This document shows, piece after piece, positions 8,097 to 56,361 of a stretch of 64,000 bases of DNA (its first letter is position 1; each line of letters opens with the position of its first letter). Source of the DNA: an uncultured Caldisericota bacterium (GTDB lineage Bacteria; Caldisericota; Caldisericia; B22-G15); assembly GCA_964640995.1 (NCBI GenBank), contig CAZXJJ010000002.1, positions 146,728 through 210,727 of the forward strand, in the 5' to 3' direction. The position numbers and the translations under genes were made by a program. The notes under the pieces are model-generated. The model was not told the DNA's origin. It worked only from the letters and a program-made list of their open reading frames with translations, and made no database searches.

Positions 8097-8449
8097 GGGG
8101 GCGAAAGGAGCTCGACATGGAATGGAGGTTTAAACCAGCAGGTGGGTTTGAGAGAACCCTAAAACTCTCAAAAGACTTAAAATGCCAACACAAATTATGC
8201 TTTTGCAGTAGCATAAGTTCTACTGCCAGTTTGGGAGATTCTGGTCTCCTTGGTCTCTCAAGCTGAGGCGAAAAGGAGACTCGCCTTTATCCTCATCCTC
8301 TGGGATAAAGGTTAAAAATATGAGGATACGCTTCTCTCCTCTGTGCCTGTTCAGAAGAGAGAAGAAGAGAAAGAAATAACAGGCTAAACCTGTAGAAGGT
8401 TTAAACTGAGATTCCATGGACGCGGGTTCAATTCCCGCCGCCTCCACCA
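8097..8449 (+). ncRNA. ssrA: tmRNA (transfer-messenger RNA)
   Basis: GC-rich island in AT-rich DNA. 5' GGGGGCGAAAGG pairs with the 3' acceptor ...GGACGCGGGTTCAATTCCCGCCGCCTCCACCA (tRNA-Ala-like T-arm and CCA). Internal tag frame 8184..8216 GCC AAC ACA AAT TAT GCT TTT GCA GTA GCA TAA encodes ANTNYAFAVA. The 76-aa minus-strand ORF 8220..8450 is spurious. Confidence 0.85.
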
Positions 8450-27304: not shown

Positions 27305-27398
27305 GGAGAGATGGCCGAGTGGCTGAAGGCACCTGCCTGCTAAGCAGGTGACGGGGTGAAAACTCCGTTCGCGGGTTCGAATCCCGCTCTCTCCGCCA
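27305..27398 (+). tRNA. tRNA-Ser (anticodon GCU)
   Basis: GGAGAGA acceptor pairing with TCTCTCC, discriminator G, CCA encoded; anticodon loop CTGCTAA; long variable arm; T-loop GGTTCGAATCC. Confidence 0.9.
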
Positions 27399-27407
27399 CT
27401 TTATTTT

Positions 27408-27484
27408 GCGCCCATAGCTCAATTGGATAGAGCGGCGGACTACGGATCCGCAGGTTGTGGGTTCAACTCCCGCTGGGCGCGCCA
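27408..27484 (+). tRNA. tRNA-Arg (anticodon ACG)
   Basis: GCGCCCA/TGGGCGC acceptor, D-loop AATTGGAT, anticodon loop CTACGGA, T-loop TTCAACT, CCA encoded. Confidence 0.9.
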
Positions 27485-31287: not shown

Positions 31288-31375
31288 TGGTGCCGGAGGT
31301 GGGAATCGAACCCACACGGACTCATCGTCCGAGGGATTTTAAGTCCCTTGCGTCTGCCTGTTCCGCCACTCCGGC
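31288..31375 (-). tRNA. tRNA-Leu (anticodon UAA)
   Basis: Reverse complement reads GCCGGAGTGGCGGAACAGG...AGGGACTTAAAATCCCT...GGTTCGATTCCCAC...CTCCGGCACCA; long variable arm, anticodon TAA. Confidence 0.9.
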
Positions 31376-31377
31376 AC

Positions 31378-31452
31378 TGGAGGCGGCACCCGGATTTGAA
31401 CCGGGGAATAACGGTTTTGCAGACCGTCGCCTTACCACTTGGCTATGCCGCC
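31378..31452 (-). tRNA. tRNA-Cys (anticodon GCA)
   Basis: Reverse complement reads GGCGGCATAGCCAAGTGGTAAGGC...GGTCTGCAAAACC...GGTTCAAATCCGGGTGCCGCCTCCA; 2 nt from tRNA-Leu. Confidence 0.9.
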
Positions 31453-47252: not shown

Positions 47253-50048
47253 ATGAAAAAAATAATTATTAGTTTTTTATTAATAATATTATTCATTAAG
47301 ATTTTTCCCATAAAGTTTTTAAATTCACAGGATTTAAACAATATTGAATTTTTTCTTCTAAAAGATGAAGAACAAAAAATTGTGACTATTGGAAAAGGGG
47401 AATTTAAAAATTTCTCTTATAATTTATCAACCAAGGATAATTTATTCACATTTATTATTTCAGGAAAGGGCAATTTAATTTTTAAAATAATTTTTAAAGA
47501 AATGGAGAAAGTATTTCCTGAAATAGATGGAGTATTTATATCACCATTTTATATATTAAAAGACAAAGAAGAAAAGTTATTTATGTTTTCTGTTGATTCT
47601 AGTGGTCTACATTACTTTGAAGTAAAAGAAAAAGAAGAAAACTTTGAAATAAATTATAATATATATTCAAATAAGAAAGAGTTGATTAAATTTAGAATAG
47701 TTAAAGTTAATTCAATTTTTGATGCATTTGAAGATTACTATAAATTTTATAAAATTAAAGATAGAAAAATTGATTTAGGAGGCCTGATATTACCTAATAT
47801 CTCTCTAACAAATATTATAAATAATGTTGGAATTGAAAATTTTAATATTAAAGGAAGAATAATTGATCCAAAAGAGCAGTATGCGCCTGAAAGAATACTT
47901 GAGGGTATAAAATATAAAATAAAAAATTTTGTTTTATTTGACCCAATAAAATTGAAGTTTGAAAATATAGATATAAATAAAATAGAAAAGGAGCTATTTT
48001 TTAATGAGAATCCATATTATAAATTAATGGGTATCCAAATTTTAACTTCATCTATAAAAAATAAAGATGGAAGTATTATTAAAATAGAAAAAAAAAGTGA
48101 GCCAACTTTAAAAATTGTTTCAGGTGAAAAAGTTCCAGATTATAAAGAAAATTCAGTTGATACAATAATTTTTTTAAATCCAGAACAAAATTTTTTAAAA
48201 AACAAGGGAATAAGTTCATTTGATATTTATTATTCAAGATACATTTATCCACTAAATATAGCTATAACAATATCAAATAGACAACTTGAAATTAAAGGTG
48301 AAAATGAAGCAAGGTATCATGGTCTTGCCTTAGATTTTTCTGATGTTGAAGATTTTTTTAATTTTGATAAGAAAAAGTTTAATAATAATCCAAAATCATT
48401 TATAGATGGAGAAGTTGCACAATTTTATTGTTCAAATCTATATAATTTTTTAAATAGTTTACAAAAAAATTATCCAGTTCTCTCAATCAATCCAAAATAT
48501 TATCAACTAATAATGAATTCAGATTTAATTTATAAAGAGATTGAAGATTTAAATTATTTAAATAATTTACCTATTGAAAGAGTTATTGTTCCTAATAGAC
48601 CAATTGTCTTTTCATTTAGACTAAAAAATGAAGATATAAATGAAAGTGTTTTAAATAAAATTTTTAAAAACTCTTTAATTTATGGAGTTTATCCAACATT
48701 TTCAAAACCTCAAGATGAACCATATTCAATATGGGATAATGTGGAGAAATTAAAACTTTTGGCTAATTATAAGGATTTTTATGATTTAATAGGAAAAATT
48801 GAATCTAAAGGTTTTATAGGCAAAAGCATCGCAACTATTGAAAATGGATATATATATCAATTTGGAGATTTTCCAGATATTTTTTTTACAATTAATGGAT
48901 ATGGAAAAATTAAAATTGAAAAAAGCGCTCTTGAATCGCAAGGTAATATTTCTATAATAAATCCCCTCAATAATGAAAAAGTTGAATTTTATGAGGAAGG
49001 AAACAACATAATAATAGATTCATGGGGGCTAAATGTTATAAATATAAAAAATGAAAACATCCAAACACAATCTGAAAACCAGAATATATCAAAATTCTCA
49101 AAGTTTGAAAATAAGAAAATTTCAATTTTAATTTTCGTTTCAGTTTTATTTTTTGTATTTTTAAATCTATTATTAAGAAAAATAAACTTGATTATCAATA
49201 TTAAACCAACTTATATTATTTTTACTTTATTAATTTTATCCTTAATCATAAATCAATTTTTGGGGTTATCATCTCCATTTTATATTCTATTATTAATAGG
49301 AATATATTTTATTTTTACCTCAACTTTTTCTTCACTTACAAAAAAATCTTTTCTATTAAATTTTTCTCTTGTTTTTCTATTATCCTCTCTTATCTTTTAC
49401 ATTTTAAATGGTAATCAAGCAATTTTTTCGCCACCATATTATCTTTTTTACAACACTTATTTTATTTCTATTATATTAACCTATTTTGTTTTTATCTTTT
49501 ATCATTTTGAATGGAAAAAGATTTATGATATATTAATTTTCTCAACAATTTTAATTGTCATTTTAATTTCAAATCCAACAAGAAATCCATTTTATTCGCC
49601 TCCAATTGATTATACATTTTTAATATCATCTCTAATTCTTGCGCTTTTTATTTTCTTACTATCTAAAAATTTATTAAAAATTATATTATTTTCTTTATTT
49701 GCTTTTCTTATCATTAATTATATTTTCATAGATAAAATCTATTTTTATCTTCTTTCAAAAGAAATATTTATTTCAGTTGATTTTATTCAAAATTTAACTT
49801 TACTTTTTGCTCTTTCAATTATTTTTATATATTTTTCAAAATCAAAATTTAAAACTAAAACAAAATTGGTTTATAACTTTTTAATAATATTTTTTATAGT
49901 TGTATCAATATACTTAAATAGAATTCTTTTGGTCTCTCCCAATATTTTTGGTATTATATCAAGCATAATAAAGTTAATTTTTTATATAATTTTAATAATA
50001 TATTTGATTTTCTTTGTTGAATCAACATTTATTAAAAAGGAGGAGTAA
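47253..50048 (+). CDS. large membrane protein: signal peptide, ~650-aa extracytoplasmic domain, C-terminal polytopic domain
   Basis: Start ATG 47253 (MKKIIISFLLIILF) with RBS AAAGGAGAG; C-terminal ~300 aa has about 10 hydrophobic helices. ORF-track start 47082 is an extension into mntP. Confidence 0.5.
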   Translation: MKKIIISFLLIILFIKIFPIKFLNSQDLNNIEFFLLKDEEQKIVTIGKGEFKNFSYNLSTKDNLFTFIISGKGNLIFKIIFKEMEKVFPEIDGVFISPFYILKDKEEKLFMFSVDSSGLHYFEVKEKEENFEINYNIYSNKKELIKFRIVKVNSIFDAFEDYYKFYKIKDRKIDLGGLILPNISLTNIINNVGIENFNIKGRIIDPKEQYAPERILEGIKYKIKNFVLFDPIKLKFENIDINKIEKELFFNENPYYKLMGIQILTSSIKNKDGSIIKIEKKSEPTLKIVSGEKVPDYKENSVDTIIFLNPEQNFLKNKGISSFDIYYSRYIYPLNIAITISNRQLEIKGENEARYHGLALDFSDVEDFFNFDKKKFNNNPKSFIDGEVAQFYCSNLYNFLNSLQKNYPVLSINPKYYQLIMNSDLIYKEIEDLNYLNNLPIERVIVPNRPIVFSFRLKNEDINESVLNKIFKNSLIYGVYPTFSKPQDEPYSIWDNVEKLKLLANYKDFYDLIGKIESKGFIGKSIATIENGYIYQFGDFPDIFFTINGYGKIKIEKSALESQGNISIINPLNNEKVEFYEEGNNIIIDSWGLNVINIKNENIQTQSENQNISKFSKFENKKISILIFVSVLFFVFLNLLLRKINLIINIKPTYIIFTLLILSLIINQFLGLSSPFYILLLIGIYFIFTSTFSSLTKKSFLLNFSLVFLLSSLIFYILNGNQAIFSPPYYLFYNTYFISIILTYFVFIFYHFEWKKIYDILIFSTILIVILISNPTRNPFYSPPIDYTFLISSLILALFIFLLSKNLLKIILFSLFAFLIINYIFIDKIYFYLLSKEIFISVDFIQNLTLLFALSIIFIYFSKSKFKTKTKLVYNFLIIFFIVVSIYLNRILLVSPNIFGIISSIIKLIFYIILIIYLIFFVESTFIKKEE

Positions 50049-51571
50049 TGGCAAAATTACTAATTGATGGAAATAGTTTAACAATAGAAGACCTTGTTTC
50101 AGTTGTCAGATTTAGGAAGGGTGTTGAACTTTCTCCTTATGCAATTGATAAAATAGATGATGCAAGAAGAATTTTAGAAATTATCTCAAAAAGAGATGAA
50201 CCTATTTATGGAGTAAATACAGGGCTTGGAAAATTATGTAATGTTAAAATAAGTAAAGAAAATTTATTAAAACTACAAGAAAATATAGTTCACTCTCATA
50301 ATATTAATATAAAACCATACTCTTCAAAAGAGATAGTTAGAGGGACAATGCTTATAAGAGCAAATTCACTTGCAAAAGGGTTTTCTGGAATAAGAAGAGA
50401 AATTATAGAAAGAATAATTCTTTTTTTAAATGAAGATATAGTGCCTTACATAACACAAAAAGGGTCGCTTGGAGCATCAGGTGATCTTATTCCTCTTGCA
50501 TCACTTGCTGCTTTTTTAATGGGAGAGGGAAAAGGAATATATAAGGGAAAGGAGTTTAAATCAATTGATATACACAAAAAATTAAATATTGAGCCTTTCA
50601 CTTTTTTAGAGAAAGAAGCACTATCTTTGATAAATGGAACATCATTTTCTCTTGCAATAGCATCAATTTCAGCATTTGATGCAAAACAAATTCTTAAAAA
50701 TGCCATAATTTCAGGAGCATTAAGTATGGAGGCACTTCTTGCTTCTTCCACACCTTTCAACCCTCTAATTCATAAGGCAAAACCTCAAACTGGCCAAGGA
50801 GTTATTGCTTATGCTATAAACTTACTTATTGAAGGTAGCACATTTATAAATTCAGTTAAAGATAAAGTCCAAGATTCATATGTAATTAGATGTTTACCAC
50901 AAATTTATGGCTCTGTTTACAATACATTAAAATTTGTTGAAAAAAATTTAACAATTGAACTTAATTCAGCATCAGATAATCCTCTTGTTTTTGCCGAAGA
51001 AAATCTTATCCTTTCTGGTGGAAATTTTCATGGATCTTTTATTTCAACTAACTCAGATTTTCTTTCAATTGAGTTAACTATTATGAGTAATAATATAGAA
51101 AGAAGAATAAATAGATTAATGAACCCAAATTTATCTTATGGACTTCCTCCATTTTTAATTGAGAATAGTGGACTTAACACAGGTTTAATGTTAATGCAGT
51201 ATCTTGCAGCATCTATTGTAAGCGAAAATAGAATTCTCTCTTACCCTGCATCTGTAACTTCAATGTCTGTTTCATGTGACCAAGAAGATGATACAAGTAT
51301 GTCGAGTAATTCTGCAAAAAAATTAAGACAAATTGTTGATAATTTATATACAATTATTTCTATTGAATTAATTTCAGCAATTCAAGCACTCTCTTTTAGA
51401 AGTGGAAAACTAGGAATAGGAACATTAGAAGCATATAAAATTTTAAGAGATGTTTATCAACCTATCACAAAAGATGAAAATTTGACATCAACAATTGAAA
51501 AAGTAAAAGAATTGGTTTTTGATGGAAGTATAGTAAAAGAGGTAGAAAAAGAGGTTGGGGAACTTTTCTAA
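50048..51571 (+). CDS. hutH: aromatic amino-acid ammonia-lyase family enzyme (histidine ammonia-lyase-like, MIO cofactor)
   Basis: GSLGASGDLIPLA contains the Ala-Ser-Gly triad that forms the MIO cofactor; 507 aa; start coupled (ATGG) to the upstream membrane-protein stop. No hutU/hutI nearby, so substrate is uncertain. Confidence 0.75.
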   Translation: MAKLLIDGNSLTIEDLVSVVRFRKGVELSPYAIDKIDDARRILEIISKRDEPIYGVNTGLGKLCNVKISKENLLKLQENIVHSHNINIKPYSSKEIVRGTMLIRANSLAKGFSGIRREIIERIILFLNEDIVPYITQKGSLGASGDLIPLASLAAFLMGEGKGIYKGKEFKSIDIHKKLNIEPFTFLEKEALSLINGTSFSLAIASISAFDAKQILKNAIISGALSMEALLASSTPFNPLIHKAKPQTGQGVIAYAINLLIEGSTFINSVKDKVQDSYVIRCLPQIYGSVYNTLKFVEKNLTIELNSASDNPLVFAEENLILSGGNFHGSFISTNSDFLSIELTIMSNNIERRINRLMNPNLSYGLPPFLIENSGLNTGLMLMQYLAASIVSENRILSYPASVTSMSVSCDQEDDTSMSSNSAKKLRQIVDNLYTIISIELISAIQALSFRSGKLGIGTLEAYKILRDVYQPITKDENLTSTIEKVKELVFDGSIVKEVEKEVGELF

Positions 51572-52235
51572 ATATATTGGAATAGATGAATCTGGAAAAG
51601 GTGATTTTTTTGGAAACCTTGTTGTTGCCGGTGTAATCTTTTATAAAGAAAAAGAAGAAATTTTTAAACTTTTAAATGTTAGGGATTCTAAAAAAATAGA
51701 AGATAAAAGAATAAAATTTCTATCAAAAGAAATAATAAAGTATCTTCCTTATGAAATAGTATCTATTTCACCAAAAAAATTTAATGAATTGTATCAAAAT
51801 TTTAAAAATATAAATTTAATTCTTTCTTGGGCATATAGCAAGATCATTAAAAATCTTCTTGAGATTGATAAGGTTTCCCTTATTATGATTGATAAATTTA
51901 CAAACAAAAATTATATTGATCTATTTTTAAAGGAAGATCAAAAAAACATTGAGAGAATAGAGATTATTAAAGGAGAAAAAGATTTAGGAATTGCGTGTGC
52001 ATCAATTCTTGCAAGAGATGCTTTTTTAAAATCTATATACTCTTTAGAGAGAAAATGGAGTTTTTCATTTCAAAAAGGCGCAGGAGATATTGTTATTGAA
52101 AGTGGAGTTCTATTTGCTAAAAAATTTGGATTAGAAAAGTTAAATGAAGTCGCAAAAGTAAATTTTAAAAATTATAAAAAGATATTGGAAATTTTAAACA
52201 AAAGAGAGCTTTTTGATGGAGGAAGTTATGTTTGA
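51555..52235 (+). CDS. rnhB: ribonuclease HII
   Basis: IGIDESGKGDFFGNLVVAGV, DSKKI, ACASILARD; 226 aa; TTG start overlapping the upstream gene end. Confidence 0.7.
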   Translation: MGNFSKYIGIDESGKGDFFGNLVVAGVIFYKEKEEIFKLLNVRDSKKIEDKRIKFLSKEIIKYLPYEIVSISPKKFNELYQNFKNINLILSWAYSKIIKNLLEIDKVSLIMIDKFTNKNYIDLFLKEDQKNIERIEIIKGEKDLGIACASILARDAFLKSIYSLERKWSFSFQKGAGDIVIESGVLFAKKFGLEKLNEVAKVNFKNYKKILEILNKRELFDGGSYV

Positions 52236-52857
52236 CAAAAAAGAATTTATCGAAATTATAAAACTTATGTGGGAAAAAGAACTTATTGGTGGTTATGGCG
52301 GAAATATATCAATAAGAGAAAATGATAATCTTTTAATAACACCATCTGGAATGAATAAAAATTTTTTAAAAGAGGATGATTTAATTATAGTTAATATGAA
52401 TGGCGAGGTTTTGGAAGGAAAGGGCAAACCTTCAACAGAAATATTGATGCATTTTGAAATATACAAAAAAAGAGAAAATGTAAAAGCAATAATTCATTCT
52501 CACCCTTCTTATTCAGTTGCAATATGTATATCTGATATTGAAATTATGAATGAACTCTTACCAGAAACAATAATTTATCTTGGAAAAATAGGATTTGCAA
52601 AATACATAAAACCAGGAACTCTTGATCTTGCAAAAAGCGTTGCAGAGAGTTTAACTGATGGTGATGCATCTTTAATTGAAAACCATGGAGTTGTGGTAGT
52701 TGGAAAAAATTTAATTGATGCATACAGTAAAATTGAACTTCTTGAAGAGTTTTCAAAATCATTTATCTATTCAAAATTATTAGGAAAAGTTAAAAAACTT
52801 CCAGAAGAGGATGTAAGATATTTCTTTGAGGTTTATAAATATTTAGGAAAAATTTAA
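52213..52857 (+). CDS. class II aldolase/adducin-family protein
   Basis: Metal-binding IIHSHPSYS and ENHGVVVVG; 214 aa. Confidence 0.7.
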   Translation: MMEEVMFDKKEFIEIIKLMWEKELIGGYGGNISIRENDNLLITPSGMNKNFLKEDDLIIVNMNGEVLEGKGKPSTEILMHFEIYKKRENVKAIIHSHPSYSVAICISDIEIMNELLPETIIYLGKIGFAKYIKPGTLDLAKSVAESLTDGDASLIENHGVVVVGKNLIDAYSKIELLEEFSKSFIYSKLLGKVKKLPEEDVRYFFEVYKYLGKI

Positions 52858-52859
52858 AA

Positions 52860-53237
52860 CTATTTTATCTCTTCCCACAAGGAATCAAGTTTATTTATAT
52901 TTAACTCTTTTAAATTTAACTTTCTTTCTAAAGCTATTTTTTTCATTTTTTCTATTCTTTCTTTAAATTTATCAAAACTTTTTATAAGAGTATCTAAAAT
53001 ATCTAAATTTAAAAATCTAGATAAATTAACTATTGTGATAATTATGTCCCCAAATTCTTCTTCTATTTCTTCTTTTTTATCTCTTTTGAGCGCTTCTCTT
53101 AACTCTTTTATCTCTTCTTCAAGTTTATCTAAAACACCAAATGCACTATCCCAATCAAATCCATATTCATTTCTCAAAAAATTTTGATAATCAATTATTT
53201 CTTTTATAATTTCTCTCTCTTTTTCCACTCTTCCCAT
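52860..53237 (-). CDS. MazG-type nucleotide pyrophosphohydrolase domain (likely second half of a split gene)
   Basis: 125 aa with GFDWDS and EEIKELREAL/EEEFGDIII (EExxE-type) motifs; overlaps the upstream ORF by 34 nt in another frame. Confidence 0.55.
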   Translation of the reverse strand: MGRVEKEREIIKEIIDYQNFLRNEYGFDWDSAFGVLDKLEEEIKELREALKRDKKEEIEEEFGDIIITIVNLSRFLNLDILDTLIKSFDKFKERIEKMKKIALERKLNLKELNINKLDSLWEEIK

Positions 53238-54040
53238 CTCTCCTCTACATCTTTTGAATTATTTATAATCTCATCTTTAAAAACATGAGGATGTCTTCCT
53301 ACAAGTTTTTTTATAACTTTTGTTAAAACATCATTCATTTTAAACTCATTTTTTTCTTCTCCGATTACTATCTGAAAAAAAATTTCAAGCATTACATCTC
53401 CAAGTTCTTCTGAAATATTTTCAATATCATTTTTAAAAATTGCTTCTTTAAGCTCTTCAACTTCACTATCAAGATATTTCACAAGTGATTCTCTTGTTTG
53501 CTCTTTATCCCATGGGCACTCTTTTCTTAAAGTTTTAATAGTTTCATAAAAAATTTTAAAATTTAATTCTTCTTCATTAGGAATAATTGCAGGAAGAATT
53601 TCATTTAACTCATAAATAAAACTCTCCTGTTTGAGTGTTTCTATTCCAAAATTTCTTTTTTTTCTTAAAAGTTCGATACTCTCTTTTGGCGAATAACCTT
53701 TATATAAGAAATAAATTGCAATAAAAGTTCCTGTTCTACCAATTCCTGCATCACAATGTATGAGAGTTGGAATATTCCACTTTTCCATCAAATCTATCCA
53801 ATAAATAAATTTTTTTACTTGTTCAAAATTAGGAATATCAAAATCTTTTACTGGAAGATAAAGATATCTTATTTTATATTTTTGAAGCAAATAATCTGGT
53901 AATTTTCTCTCTGAAAAAGTTACAATTGATCTTATTTTATTTTCTTTTAAATATTTAAATTTTTCTTCACTATCTGGATATTCAGATGCAGCGAGAAAAT
54001 TATCAACAATCCAAGAAAAATTATTGAAAGGGTTTTGCAT
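53204..54040 (-). CDS. dual-specificity/tyrosine phosphatase domain fused to MazG nucleotide pyrophosphohydrolase domain
   Basis: N-terminal PTP signature HCDAGIGRTG (CX5R); C-terminal MazG domain (EVEELKEA, EELGDVMLEI, GRHPHVF, RWEEWKK). Confidence 0.6.
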   Translation of the reverse strand: MQNPFNNFSWIVDNFLAASEYPDSEEKFKYLKENKIRSIVTFSERKLPDYLLQKYKIRYLYLPVKDFDIPNFEQVKKFIYWIDLMEKWNIPTLIHCDAGIGRTGTFIAIYFLYKGYSPKESIELLRKKRNFGIETLKQESFIYELNEILPAIIPNEEELNFKIFYETIKTLRKECPWDKEQTRESLVKYLDSEVEELKEAIFKNDIENISEELGDVMLEIFFQIVIGEEKNEFKMNDVLTKVIKKLVGRHPHVFKDEIINNSKDVEERWEEWKKREKL

Positions 54041-54107
54041 ATGATAATTATATCATTTCTCTTCGTGTTATAATATTTTAAGTATGATTTTCATTAAGGA
54101 GGAATAG

Positions 54108-54959
54108 ATGTTTGAGATAACATATAAAGAAGAACTCTGTCCTACAATTTTTTTAATGAAAGTTAAAGCACCTCTTGTGGCAAAAAATGCAAAACCTGGT
54201 CAATTTTTTGTTTTAAGGGTCTATGAAAAGGGGGAAAGAATACCACTTACAATAGCAGATTATGAGAATGATGAAATTACTATGGTTTTTCAAACAGTTG
54301 GACTTACAACATATCTTTTATCTTATAAAGAGATCGGAGATACAATCTATGACATTGTAGGACCACTTGGAACTCCTTCAGAGATTCATAAATATGAAAA
54401 TGGTTCAATTGTTTTAATTGGCGGTGGAGTTGGAATTGCACCAATTTATCCAATTTTAAGAGGTTTCAAAGAAATTGGAAACAAAGTTATCTCTATCCTT
54501 GGAGCAAGAAGTAAAAATTTACTTTTCTGGGAAGATAGATTCAGAAAAATTTCAGATGAAGTTTTAATTACAACTGATGATGGAACTTATGGAAAAAAGG
54601 GTTTTGTAACAGATGCATTAAAAGAATTAATTGATAGAGGAGAAAGAATCGCTCAAGTTACTGCAATTGGTCCACCTATAATGATGAAAAATGTCGCAGA
54701 GCTTACAAGACCATATGGAATAAAAACGATTGTTAGCTTAAATTCAATTATGGTTGATGGTACAGGTATGTGTGGAGTATGCAGAGTTGAAGTTGGTAAT
54801 GAAACAAAATTAACATGTCAAGATGGTCCAGAATTTGATGGACATCTCGTTAATTTCCAGCTTCTTTTTGAAAGATTAAAAATGTACAGAAATGAAGAAC
54901 AAATTGCAATGAATTTCCTTGAAGAAAAAAGGAGGATGATCCATGGCTATAAATCCTAA
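54108..54959 (+). CDS. nfnA: NADH-dependent reduced ferredoxin:NADP oxidoreductase subunit A / sulfide dehydrogenase beta-like (PyrK-fold)
   Basis: FAD/NAD-binding fold with C-terminal 2Fe-2S motif GMCGVCRVEV...C; 283 aa; coupled to the GltD-like subunit. Confidence 0.7.
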   Translation: MFEITYKEELCPTIFLMKVKAPLVAKNAKPGQFFVLRVYEKGERIPLTIADYENDEITMVFQTVGLTTYLLSYKEIGDTIYDIVGPLGTPSEIHKYENGSIVLIGGGVGIAPIYPILRGFKEIGNKVISILGARSKNLLFWEDRFRKISDEVLITTDDGTYGKKGFVTDALKELIDRGERIAQVTAIGPPIMMKNVAELTRPYGIKTIVSLNSIMVDGTGMCGVCRVEVGNETKLTCQDGPEFDGHLVNFQLLFERLKMYRNEEQIAMNFLEEKRRMIHGYKS

Positions 54960-56361
54960 AAAAACTCCAATGAAGGAACAAGACCCAAAAGAGAGAATAA
55001 AAAATTTTGATGAAGTTCCATTTGGATATACAGAAGATGAAGCAACTATAGAAGCAGAAAGATGTCTTCAATGCAAAATTCCAAAATGCATTGAAGGATG
55101 TCCTGTTAATGTTGATATCCCAGGTTTTATAAAAGCAATAAAAGATACAGATTTTGATAGAGCAATTAAGATTATGAAAAATACAAATTCTCTTCCAGCA
55201 ATAACTGGAAGAGTTTGTCCTCAAGAAACTCAATGTGAAGAAAAATGCGTATTAGCAAAAAAATATGAACCAGTTGCAATAGGAAGATTAGAAAGGTTTA
55301 TTGCTGATTGGGATGCAAAAAGAGGAATGGTTATTCCTGAAATAAATGAAAGATATGATATTAAAGTTGCAATTGTTGGAGCAGGTCCAGCAGGTTTAAC
55401 TTGTGCAGCAGATCTTGCAAAATTTGGTTATGATGTAACAATATTTGAATCACTTCATGCCCCAGGTGGTGTTTTAATTTATGGAATTCCAGAATTCAGA
55501 TTACCTAAATCTATTGTCCAAAGAGAGGTAGAATATGTTAAAAAACTTGGAGTAAAAATTATTGCCAATGTTGTTGTTGGAAGAACATTCACTTTAAGAG
55601 ATCTATTCAATGAAGGATATAAAGCAATATTTTTAGGAACAGGTGCTGGTGCTCCACAATTTATGAATATTCAAGGAGAAAATTTACTTGGAATTCTTTC
55701 TGCAAATGAATACTTAACAAGAATAAATTTAATGAAAGCATATAAATTTCCAGAATATGACACACCCGTTAAAAAGGGAGGAGTTGTAGCTGTTATAGGA
55801 GCAGGAAATGTTGCAATGGATGCTGCAAGAAGTGCATTAAGAATGGGCGCTGAAAGAGTAATTGTTGTATATAGAAGAACAGAACAAGAAATGCCCGCAA
55901 GAGTTGAAGAGTATCACCATGCAATTGAAGAAGGAGTTGAATTTTTGTGGCTCACATGTCCAACAAGATATTTTGGAGATGAAAATGGATGGGTTAAAGA
56001 GATGGAAGTTATTAAAAATGAACTAGGTGAACCAGATGAATCTGGAAGAAGAAGACCTGTTCCAATTAAAGGAAGTGAATATAGGATTAAAGTTGATACA
56101 GTTATTGTTGCAATAGGAACAGTTCCAAACCCTCTTGTTGCTAGAACAAGTGGACTTAAAACTGGAAGACATGGAGTTGTATTAGCAGATGAAAATGGAA
56201 GAACATCCCTTGAAGGGGTTTGGGCAGGTGGAGATATTGTAACTGGTGCTGCAACTGTAATTCTTGCAATGGGTGCAGGTAAAAAAGCAGCACAAGATAT
56301 GGATAGATATTTAAAGGAAAAGTACATTCACAAAAGAGAATTTGTCTGGGCTTCAATTTAA
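54943..56361 (+). CDS. nfnB: NfnB / glutamate synthase small-subunit-like oxidoreductase
   Basis: N-terminal Fe-S cysteine cluster (CLQCKIPKCIEGCP, CPQETQCEEKC), FAD/NADPH Rossmann motifs VAIVGAGPAGL and VAVIGAGNVAMD; 472 aa. Confidence 0.8.
   Translation: MAINPKKTPMKEQDPKERIKNFDEVPFGYTEDEATIEAERCLQCKIPKCIEGCPVNVDIPGFIKAIKDTDFDRAIKIMKNTNSLPAITGRVCPQETQCEEKCVLAKKYEPVAIGRLERFIADWDAKRGMVIPEINERYDIKVAIVGAGPAGLTCAADLAKFGYDVTIFESLHAPGGVLIYGIPEFRLPKSIVQREVEYVKKLGVKIIANVVVGRTFTLRDLFNEGYKAIFLGTGAGAPQFMNIQGENLLGILSANEYLTRINLMKAYKFPEYDTPVKKGGVVAVIGAGNVAMDAARSALRMGAERVIVVYRRTEQEMPARVEEYHHAIEEGVEFLWLTCPTRYFGDENGWVKEMEVIKNELGEPDESGRRRPVPIKGSEYRIKVDTVIVAIGTVPNPLVARTSGLKTGRHGVVLADENGRTSLEGVWAGGDIVTGAATVILAMGAGKKAAQDMDRYLKEKYIHKREFVWASI

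Follow-up and report, generated by a model that had tools for sequence, protein, structure and literature searches.

Is a tandem MazG gene whose two repeats lie in different reading frames a damaged gene, a recoded gene or a pair of genuine genes? The question is raised by a locus of an uncultured Caldisericota bacterium (assembly GCA_964640995.1, contig CAZXJJ010000002.1, positions 146,728 to 210,727), lying in a stretch of 64,000 nucleotides (nt) with a G+C content of 27%, which is called the window below. Here two open reading frames (ORFs) overlap: ORF1 encodes a cysteine-based protein tyrosine phosphatase (PTP) or dual-specificity phosphatase (DSP) domain followed by an N-type MazG domain, and ORF2 encodes a C-type MazG domain. 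The original prediction, made from the sequence alone, gave the two overlapping ORFs at the right coordinates, both are located on the minus strand, and all the motifs that it quoted (HCDAGIGRTG, RHPHVF, RWEEWKK and GFDW) are present in the sequence. It offered two alternatives, a frameshifted three-domain PTP-MazG-MazG gene or a genuine two-gene arrangement. The best reading of our analysis, which we consider probable, is an ancient and conserved gene fission into two overlapping cistrons, the products of which would reassemble.

Searching with the joined protein of 393 amino acids (aa) as a query returned 27 ortholog clusters with identities from 98% down to 53%, and the named ones all belong to Caldisericia. 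All of the 27 ORF1 clusters are 276-278 aa long and cover only 70% of the joined query, and no fused Caldisericia protein was found in this search, where it would score highest. With ORF2 as the query, about 60 clusters of stand-alone proteins (122-128 aa) were obtained, likewise from Caldisericia. At the nucleotide level, ten orthologous loci with ORF1 identities of 53-83% were compared (L081, L166, L167, L082/L083, L169, L170, L168, L086, L171 and L084). Relative to ORF1, ORF2 of the window lies in the -1 frame (the start codons are 803 nt apart, and 803 mod 3 = 2), and the same -1 relation with an overlap of 31 or 34 nt recurs in 10/10 orthologous loci. The start offsets across the window and the ten loci are 800-812 nt, each leaving a remainder of 2 on division by 3. 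Broad contig and metagenome scans were swamped by ordinary MazG genes (the motifs ECPWD and RHPHVF are generic) and gave only the L086 ortholog and a Coprothermobacter locus (L040); the remaining orthologous loci were obtained through exact-protein matches. Of the alternatives offered originally, the genuine two-gene arrangement is borne out, with orthologs that consistently encode two genes, and the frameshifted gene, understood as an error or a pseudogene, is not. The homolog alignment that had been proposed as a check shows orthologs unfused throughout Caldisericia, the outcome that had been named as speaking against a fused gene.

The coding sequences on both sides of the junction appear to be constrained. 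Pairwise Nei-Gojobori ratios of nonsynonymous to synonymous substitution rates (dN/dS) are 0.05-0.23 for the PTP domain, 0.04-0.21 for the first MazG domain and 0.08-0.29 for the non-overlapping part of ORF2, values which indicate that all three domains are maintained by purifying selection.

Analysis of the N-terminal region revealed that ORF1 lies above the curated Pfam thresholds of the profiles for Cys-based PTPs and dual-specificity phosphatases (PTP-SAK, 77.8 bits over residues 6-142, cut-off 27; Tc-R-P, 68.7 bits, cut-off 27; DSPc, 46.3 bits, cut-off 33.5; Y_phosphatase, 39.4 bits, cut-off 20.9); no usable literature on the meaning of the Pfam name PTP-SAK was found. The catalytic Cys96 and Arg102 together with Asp66 are invariant in 28/28 aligned ORF1 orthologs, as are H95, G99, G101, T103 and G104. 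D66, which lies in the motif KDFDxP, and P70 are both invariant in this alignment, and from its position D66 would be the general acid. The phosphatase domain proposed in the original prediction is thus confirmed by Pfam matches and an intact P-loop, and the loss of the catalytic Cys and Arg, which was to count against it, is seen in none of the 28 orthologs. The closest Protein Data Bank sequence to this domain is 25xa_A (E-value 1.6e-25), followed by ShufPTP, Tk-PTP, DUSP23 and SsoPTP. The PTP fold is confirmed in an AlphaFold2 (AF2) model with a mean predicted local distance difference test score (pLDDT) of 93, which matches VHZ (4erc) with a template modelling (TM) score of 0.88 and a root-mean-square deviation (rmsd) of 2.0 A, and Tk-PTP with a TM score of 0.86. 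By sequence and by fold, the PTP domain of ORF1 is closest to the small atypical DSPs. As a side observation, in one protein of 603 aa (P0218) four separate stretches match the ORF1 PTP domain (E-value 7e-62), apparently representing repeated PTP domains.

Both ORFs also match the Pfam family MazG (PF03819, cut-off 22), with 78.7 bits for ORF1 (residues 181-254) and 35.5 bits for ORF2. On the tandem-MazG model NF007113/PRK09562 (251 positions), ORF1 occupies positions 3-121 and ORF2 positions 148-249, half of the model each, and both scores (125.7 bits for ORF1 and 90.6 bits for ORF2) are below the whole-protein cut-off of 208; neither ORF has both domains on one polypeptide, as the tandem-MazG equivalog demands. 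In the alignment with E. coli MazG (3cra), ORF1 corresponds to residues 17-125 and ORF2 to residues 157-259. These Pfam and NCBIfam searches agree with the original assignment of the first MazG repeat to ORF1 and of the second to the overlapping ORF2. The motifs of ORF2 are GFDW, EExxE (E41, E42, E45), EExGD (E60-D64) and KFxxR, and the residues invariant in its orthologs comprise GFDW, K38, E41, E42, E45, E60, E61, G63 and D64 as well as N71, R74, K90, F91 and R94. In the MazG domain of ORF1, E193, E196, E212, G214, D215 and RHPHVF are invariant in orthologs and E211 is conserved in at least 90% of them, the first Glu of the EExxE motif being Ser or Asp in Caldisericia. The predicted metal-binding acidic motifs EExx(E/D) and EExGD are present in both MazG domains.

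To place the split in a wider context, the full library was searched with ORF1 by phmmer, which revealed single-ORF relatives of 376-414 aa, in which PTP and MazG domains run into a second MazG domain. The three-domain PTP-MazG-MazG architecture suggested in the original prediction does occur, but single-ORF forms of it were found in other lineages only. Among these relatives the HCx5R signature is kept in P0219, P0220 (of the P0028 type), P0221, P0222 and P0224. In P0228, P0230, P0243 and P0299 the P-loop is degenerate (Cys and/or Arg lost) and the MazG motifs are intact, so that the PTP module may be a pseudo-enzyme in these lineages. The single-ORF protein of Coprothermobacter platensis DSM 11748 (345 aa, L040 2809..3846) likewise has a degenerate PTP domain without HCx5R. 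Degenerate loops in several single-ORF relatives may mean that the domain is partly structural or regulatory there; in Caldisericia, unlike these relatives, the residues predicted to be catalytic are strictly kept. The P0028 gene (L085 3001..4245) and the Coprothermobacter gene in L040 both lie divergently beside a gene for a membrane H+-pyrophosphatase, a suggestive neighbour for an enzyme that produces pyrophosphate (PPi).

The linker between the two MazG domains differs between the split and the single-ORF forms. By hand count on the alignment, the distance from the Trp of the RW pair to the Gly of GFDW is about 35-36 residues in the single-ORF relatives and about 40 in E. coli MazG, compared with about 24-25 in the joined Caldisericia protein, so the linker of the single-ORF relatives is 11-12 residues longer than that of the joined protein. 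The simplest history would be that an ancestral single gene PTP-MazG(N)-MazG(C), which is intact in other lineages, was split in the Caldisericia lineage by deletion of about 11-12 linker codons plus or minus one base, which would have shifted the frame. Both halves would have survived because the stretch of Glu, Lys and Arg codons at the junction is purine-rich and open in all frames and because the Arg-Trp codons supply a start codon in the -1 frame.

Structure models are in line with such a history. A conceptual fusion of the window proteins was modelled in AF2 with unpaired alignment rows, and the natural fusion P0028 was used as a control. The window fusion (pLDDT 93.4) shows one unbroken helix across the junction (residues 262-293) and superposes on E. 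coli MazG only with TM scores of 0.40-0.43 and rmsd values of 18-22 A, each domain alone giving a match. The P0028 model (pLDDT 91.7) has a low-confidence loop at residues 283-294 and fits chain A of 3cra/3crc over both domains (TM score 0.73-0.77, rmsd 4.2-4.3 A). Because the window fusion superposes poorly while P0028 fits 3cra, the models suggest, with moderate weight, that a frameshift product would not attain the canonical intrachain packing and that a free ORF2 protein could dock canonically.

If ORF2 is a cistron of its own, it should carry its own signals for initiation. The letters at the window junction, in the frame of ORF1, read ...GAG GAG AGA TGG GAA GAG TGG AAA AAG AGA GAG AAA TTA TAA, and the ORF2 ATG (53237..53235) consists of the last base of the AGA and the first two bases of the TGG of a conserved Arg-Trp codon pair. 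Across the orthologous loci and the window the ORF2 start lies at AG(A/G)TGG, being ATG in 8/11 and GTG in 3/11, with GTG where the Arg codon is AGG. Pairing of the Shine-Dalgarno (SD) type was calculated as the duplex energy with the canonical anti-SD, which was assumed and not taken from this genome. The SD-like element of ORF2 in the window reaches -9.2 kcal/mol, against a median of -6.4 kcal/mol for the long ORFs of the window and -1.4 kcal/mol for random 20-mers. The first ORF2 start is preceded in 9/11 loci by SD-like pairing of -5.4 kcal/mol or stronger. The other two, L081 and L167, have an ATG or GTG at codon 4 with pairing energies of -5.2 and -8.2 kcal/mol, so that 11/11 loci offer ORF2 a start codon, ATG or GTG, behind an SD-like element (range -5.2 to -9.2 kcal/mol). 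In the genes of this genome aGGAGG usually lies 4-7 nt ahead of the start codon.

An overlap of this length does not stand alone. Neighbouring same-strand genes in the orthologous loci were called with overlaps of 8-29 nt, and in the mechanical ORF list of the window, same-strand overlaps of 17-23 nt occur within 50048..52857 and 54108..56361, both on the plus strand (the pairs histidine ammonia-lyase/RNase HII, RNase HII/aldolase and NfnA/NfnB-like). Long gene overlaps look like a habit of this genome. In the scanning model of Adhin and van Duin, post-termination ribosomes can reportedly reinitiate at start codons a short way upstream, which makes coupling across 31-34 nt plausible, and the two overlapping cistrons are probably translationally coupled. 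Taken as a mechanism, one transcript, probably leaderless, would carry the two overlapping cistrons, ORF1 giving a PTP-MazG(N) protein and ORF2 a MazG(C) protein. Initiation of ORF2 would take place at the ATG or GTG that the Arg-Trp codons form in the -1 frame, or three codons later, aided by the SD-like GAGG or AGGTGG (from Glu and Arg-Trp codons), by termination-reinitiation coupling with ORF1, or by both. The two polypeptides would then associate non-covalently into a tandem MazG-type nucleoside triphosphate (NTP) pyrophosphohydrolase.

Several points weigh against gene fission with reassembly. The ORF2 start site and the association of the two proteins are deduced indirectly, and the anti-SD used for the duplex energies is an assumed, canonical one. 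Because the Arg-Trp codons dictate the start codon of ORF2, the conservation of that codon does not count as independent evidence, and the N-terminal MGR of ORF2 is likewise forced by RWE in frame 0. The junction is rich in purines (Glu, Lys and Arg codons), which yields SD-like strings and keeps all frames open regardless. Furthermore, the AF2 comparison is between monomers, although the protein acts as an oligomer, and the codons at the junction include some that would suit ribosomal slippage.

The last point concerns programmed -1 frameshifting, in which ribosomes on ORF1 would slip back one base at the Lys-Lys codons (G/A/C_AAA_AAG) to give a PTP-MazG-MazG fusion, the ORF1 product being the non-shifted form as with tau and gamma of dnaX. 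We regard this as quite unlikely. It would account for ORF2 always being in the -1 frame, which opens only 0-8 codons before the overlap. AAA AAG is found in the window and in L081, L167, L168 and L169, the heptamer being perfect (A_AAA_AAG) in L168 and L169 and imperfect (G_AAA_AAG) in the other three, and the ORF2 N-termini of a large MGRT(Q/E)KELD clade suggest C/G_AAA_AAG there. AAG makes up 12% of the Lys codons in the window, yet it is present at the junction in every locus. The AAG background at KK dipeptides before an A-initial codon is 49%; the enrichment fits Glu selection in the -1 frame together with avoidance of poly-A as well as slipperiness, the loci are not independent samples, and we do not treat it as decisive. 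An upstream SD stimulates the dnaX frameshift, and the SD-like element about 15 nt upstream of the slip site could act likewise. However, the heptamer is not conserved, the sequence being TGG AAG AGA in L166, TGG AAG AAG by implication in P0131, P0138 and P0142 and only A_AAG in others; the slippery motif is absent from L166, P0131, P0133, P0134, P0138 and P0142, yet ORF2 is intact there and under purifying selection. RNAalifold on the 11 junctions revealed no structure near the site (consensus -1.0 kcal/mol, 0 covarying pairs), the only helix lying at least 35 nt downstream of the slip site, and an Rfam scan of the whole window detected no frameshift or recoding element at the junction. ORF2 moreover has its own start codon and SD-like element in every locus, and the fused product would be short of 11-12 linker residues, its model lacking the tandem arrangement of the MazG domains.

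That ORF1 and ORF2 encode two independent enzymes which share only a transcript, ORF2 forming a homo-oligomer and ORF1 another one through MazG(N) with no complex between them, is unlikely in our judgement. Single-domain MazG proteins have been crystallised (2yxh, 116 aa and N-type, and 1vmg), and each of the two MazG domains keeps its own metal-binding motifs, both of which would suit separate enzymes. On the other hand, the two ORFs are adjacent and overlapping in every locus compared, no Caldisericia ortholog of either was found in a fused or other architecture among the clusters, and the two share an origin in a single tandem protein whose N and C domains pack against each other (P0028 model, 3cra); strict co-inheritance and overlap suggest matched expression. 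An error of sequencing or assembly that hides a real single ORF of 393 aa, or a recent frameshift that inactivated the gene and left ORF2 as a decaying remnant, is hardly credible. The junction carries a homopolymer and an (AG)n run GGAAAAAGAGAGAGAAA of the kind in which an A5 might be read instead of an A6 (53215-53219), where one added A joins the frames, and a tandem MazG is normally one polypeptide. Nevertheless the split recurs, at identities down to 53%, in 10/10 loci, in 27 clusters of ORF1 and in about 60 of ORF2, and these come from numerous projects and assemblers. The same bases were also recovered in an independent public assembly (GCA_900098825.1, contig FMSI01101941.1), which is identical to the window base for base over 2037 nt including the junction. 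With a conserved split and an ORF2 under selection (dN/dS 0.08-0.29, catalytic residues invariant), the comparative data refute both the sequencing error and the recent pseudogene.

Beside the two separate proteins, some Caldisericia might produce a third one. At loci with A/G/C_AAA_AAG, and in one lineage with a putative A10, low-level -1 frameshifting or transcriptional slippage could give a continuous-helix PTP-MazG-MazG fusion, a suggestion that we consider improbable. If it were true, one locus would yield three proteins, recoding would set how much MazG(C) is free and how much is tethered, and the retention of AAG would be a footprint of that selection. In P0168, an ORF2 ortholog beginning MGRIKKKKN, back-inference from the two frames gives about 10 A at the junction, a length prone to transcriptional or replication slippage.

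The positions of the features discussed are listed in Table 1.

Table 1. Features of the ORF1-ORF2 locus, in positions of the window.
Feature	Position	Strand	Description
ORF1	53204..54040	minus	278 aa; Cys-based PTP/DSP domain, then N-type MazG domain; ORF list, Pfam, NCBIfam
PTP/DSP domain, VHZ/DUSP23, Tk-PTP and SsoPTP-like	53603..54025	minus	ORF1 aa 6-146; PF22784, 77.8 bits
P-loop HCDAGIGRTG	53729..53758	minus	ORF1 aa 95-104; predicted catalytic Cys96 and Arg102; fits HCx5R(S/T)
MazG domain 1	53210..53557	minus	ORF1 aa 162-277; SExxE (E193, E196), EELGD (E211-D215), RHPHVF
ORF2	52860..53237	minus	125 aa; C-type MazG domain
ORF2 alternative start	GTG at 53228	minus	would give 122 aa
ORF1/ORF2 overlap	53204..53237	minus	34 nt; holds the Lys-Lys codons AAA AAG
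SD-like element GTAGAGGAGAG	53238..53251	minus	directly 5' of the ORF2 ATG; GAGG, then 4-nt spacer
Extended -10-like box TGaTATAAT	54047..54055	minus	ends 6 nt before the ORF1 ATG; consensus match only

The sequence upstream of ORF1 suggests how the pair might be transcribed. A TGnTATAAT box 6 nt before the ORF1 ATG is shared by the window and 7/10 loci (L081, L166, L167, L082, L169, L170 and L168), and ORF1 has no SD upstream in the window (-1.8 kcal/mol). Because of this conserved -10-like box close to the ATG and the missing SD, the ORF1-ORF2 transcript is probably leaderless. In the three deepest loci (L086, L171 and L084), ORF1 has an SD and is coupled through TAATG to the gene that precedes it. 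A simple promoter and terminator scan added nothing beyond the reading of the sequence by eye. The ORF1-ORF2 pair forms a unit of its own, divergent from NfnAB-like genes and convergent with the genes for a class II aldolase, RNase HII and histidine ammonia-lyase, and the gene order around it is kept in 7/10 orthologous loci; no functional clue was seen in the gene context of the pair in the window or the orthologous loci. Elsewhere in the window, the Rfam scan detected a tmRNA gene at 8097..8449 (plus strand, 162 bits) and tRNA gene pairs at 27305..27481 (plus strand) and 31291..31452 (minus strand).

MazG enzymes hydrolyse (d)NTPs to nucleoside monophosphates and PPi in a house-cleaning role, and a link to (p)ppGpp has been made for E. 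coli MazG as well. The products of ORF1 and ORF2 most likely form a heteromer that rebuilds a tandem MazG-type NTP pyrophosphohydrolase, an activity predicted from the families involved, to which the VHZ-like Cys phosphatase would add a predicted phosphomonoesterase activity. The link between hydrolysis of phosphoproteins and of (p)ppGpp or NTP that the original prediction put forward is speculative. No paper on a PTP-MazG fusion, on MazG of Caldisericia or on the split was found in the searchable literature, which agrees with the remark in the original prediction that the PTP-MazG fusion was not known to be characterised. For annotation, the locus should be kept as two genes and should not be merged, repaired or flagged as a pseudogene. 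It is also a clean natural example of fission at a domain boundary, in which the former C-terminal helix, read out of frame, supplies about 10 codons of a new N-terminus, and a conserved Arg-Trp pair provides the new start codon at no cost. A tandem MazG that can persist as two chains offers a natural test of the cooperation between its N and C domains. Little follows from the split in practice unless the phosphatase acts on a nucleotide-derived substrate.

The component families are well known. The split pair represents a variation on an enzyme already known, with an unsurprising mechanism, and a fairly ordinary gene fission. The phosphatase has its counterparts in the small atypical DSPs and PTPs (human VHZ/DUSP23, 4erc and 2img; Thermococcus Tk-PTP, 5z5a; Sulfolobus SsoPTP, 2i6i; 25xa), with which ORF1 shares the fold (TM scores 0.79-0.88, rmsd 1.9-2.4 A), the HCx5R(S/T) P-loop and the conserved Asp, the E-values by sequence being 1.6e-25 to 4e-10. 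Those enzymes are stand-alone proteins of about 150 aa, whereas the phosphatase of ORF1 is fused to a MazG domain. E. coli MazG (3cra/3crc; NF007113/PRK09562, TIGR00444) is spanned over both repeats by residues 162-277 of ORF1 and 24-125 of ORF2, and RHPHVF, GFDW, EExxE, EExGD and KFxxR of the E. coli-type tandem MazG are kept; however, the tandem MazG is one polypeptide with a linker about 15 residues longer, and the Caldisericia domains lie on two polypeptides in different frames, with an added N-terminal Cys phosphatase.

YabN (tetrapyrrole-methylase-like domain plus tandem MazG; NF052436) likewise combines a tandem MazG with an unrelated N-terminal enzyme-like domain, and its MazG part is matched by ORF1 with 125.6 bits and by ORF2 with 86.9 bits, far under the YabN cut-off of 525; its N-terminal domain is methylase-like, whereas that of Caldisericia is a PTP/DSP and the gene is split. 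With the dnaX-type -1 frameshift (A_AAA_AAG, an upstream SD and a downstream hairpin) the Caldisericia loci have in common the -1 relation, AAA AAG in many loci and an SD-like element upstream, but the motif is not conserved among them, no structure follows the site, and ORF2 possesses a start and an SD-like element of its own. The nearest relatives of the whole are the single-ORF PTP-MazG-MazG proteins (P0028/P0220 of 414 aa, P0219, P0221, P0222 and P0224, and that of Coprothermobacter), which show the same domain order and MazG motifs as the split pair with 31-37% identity over the full length. The single-ORF P0028 differs in the 12-residue loop linker of its model and in its gene neighbourhood.

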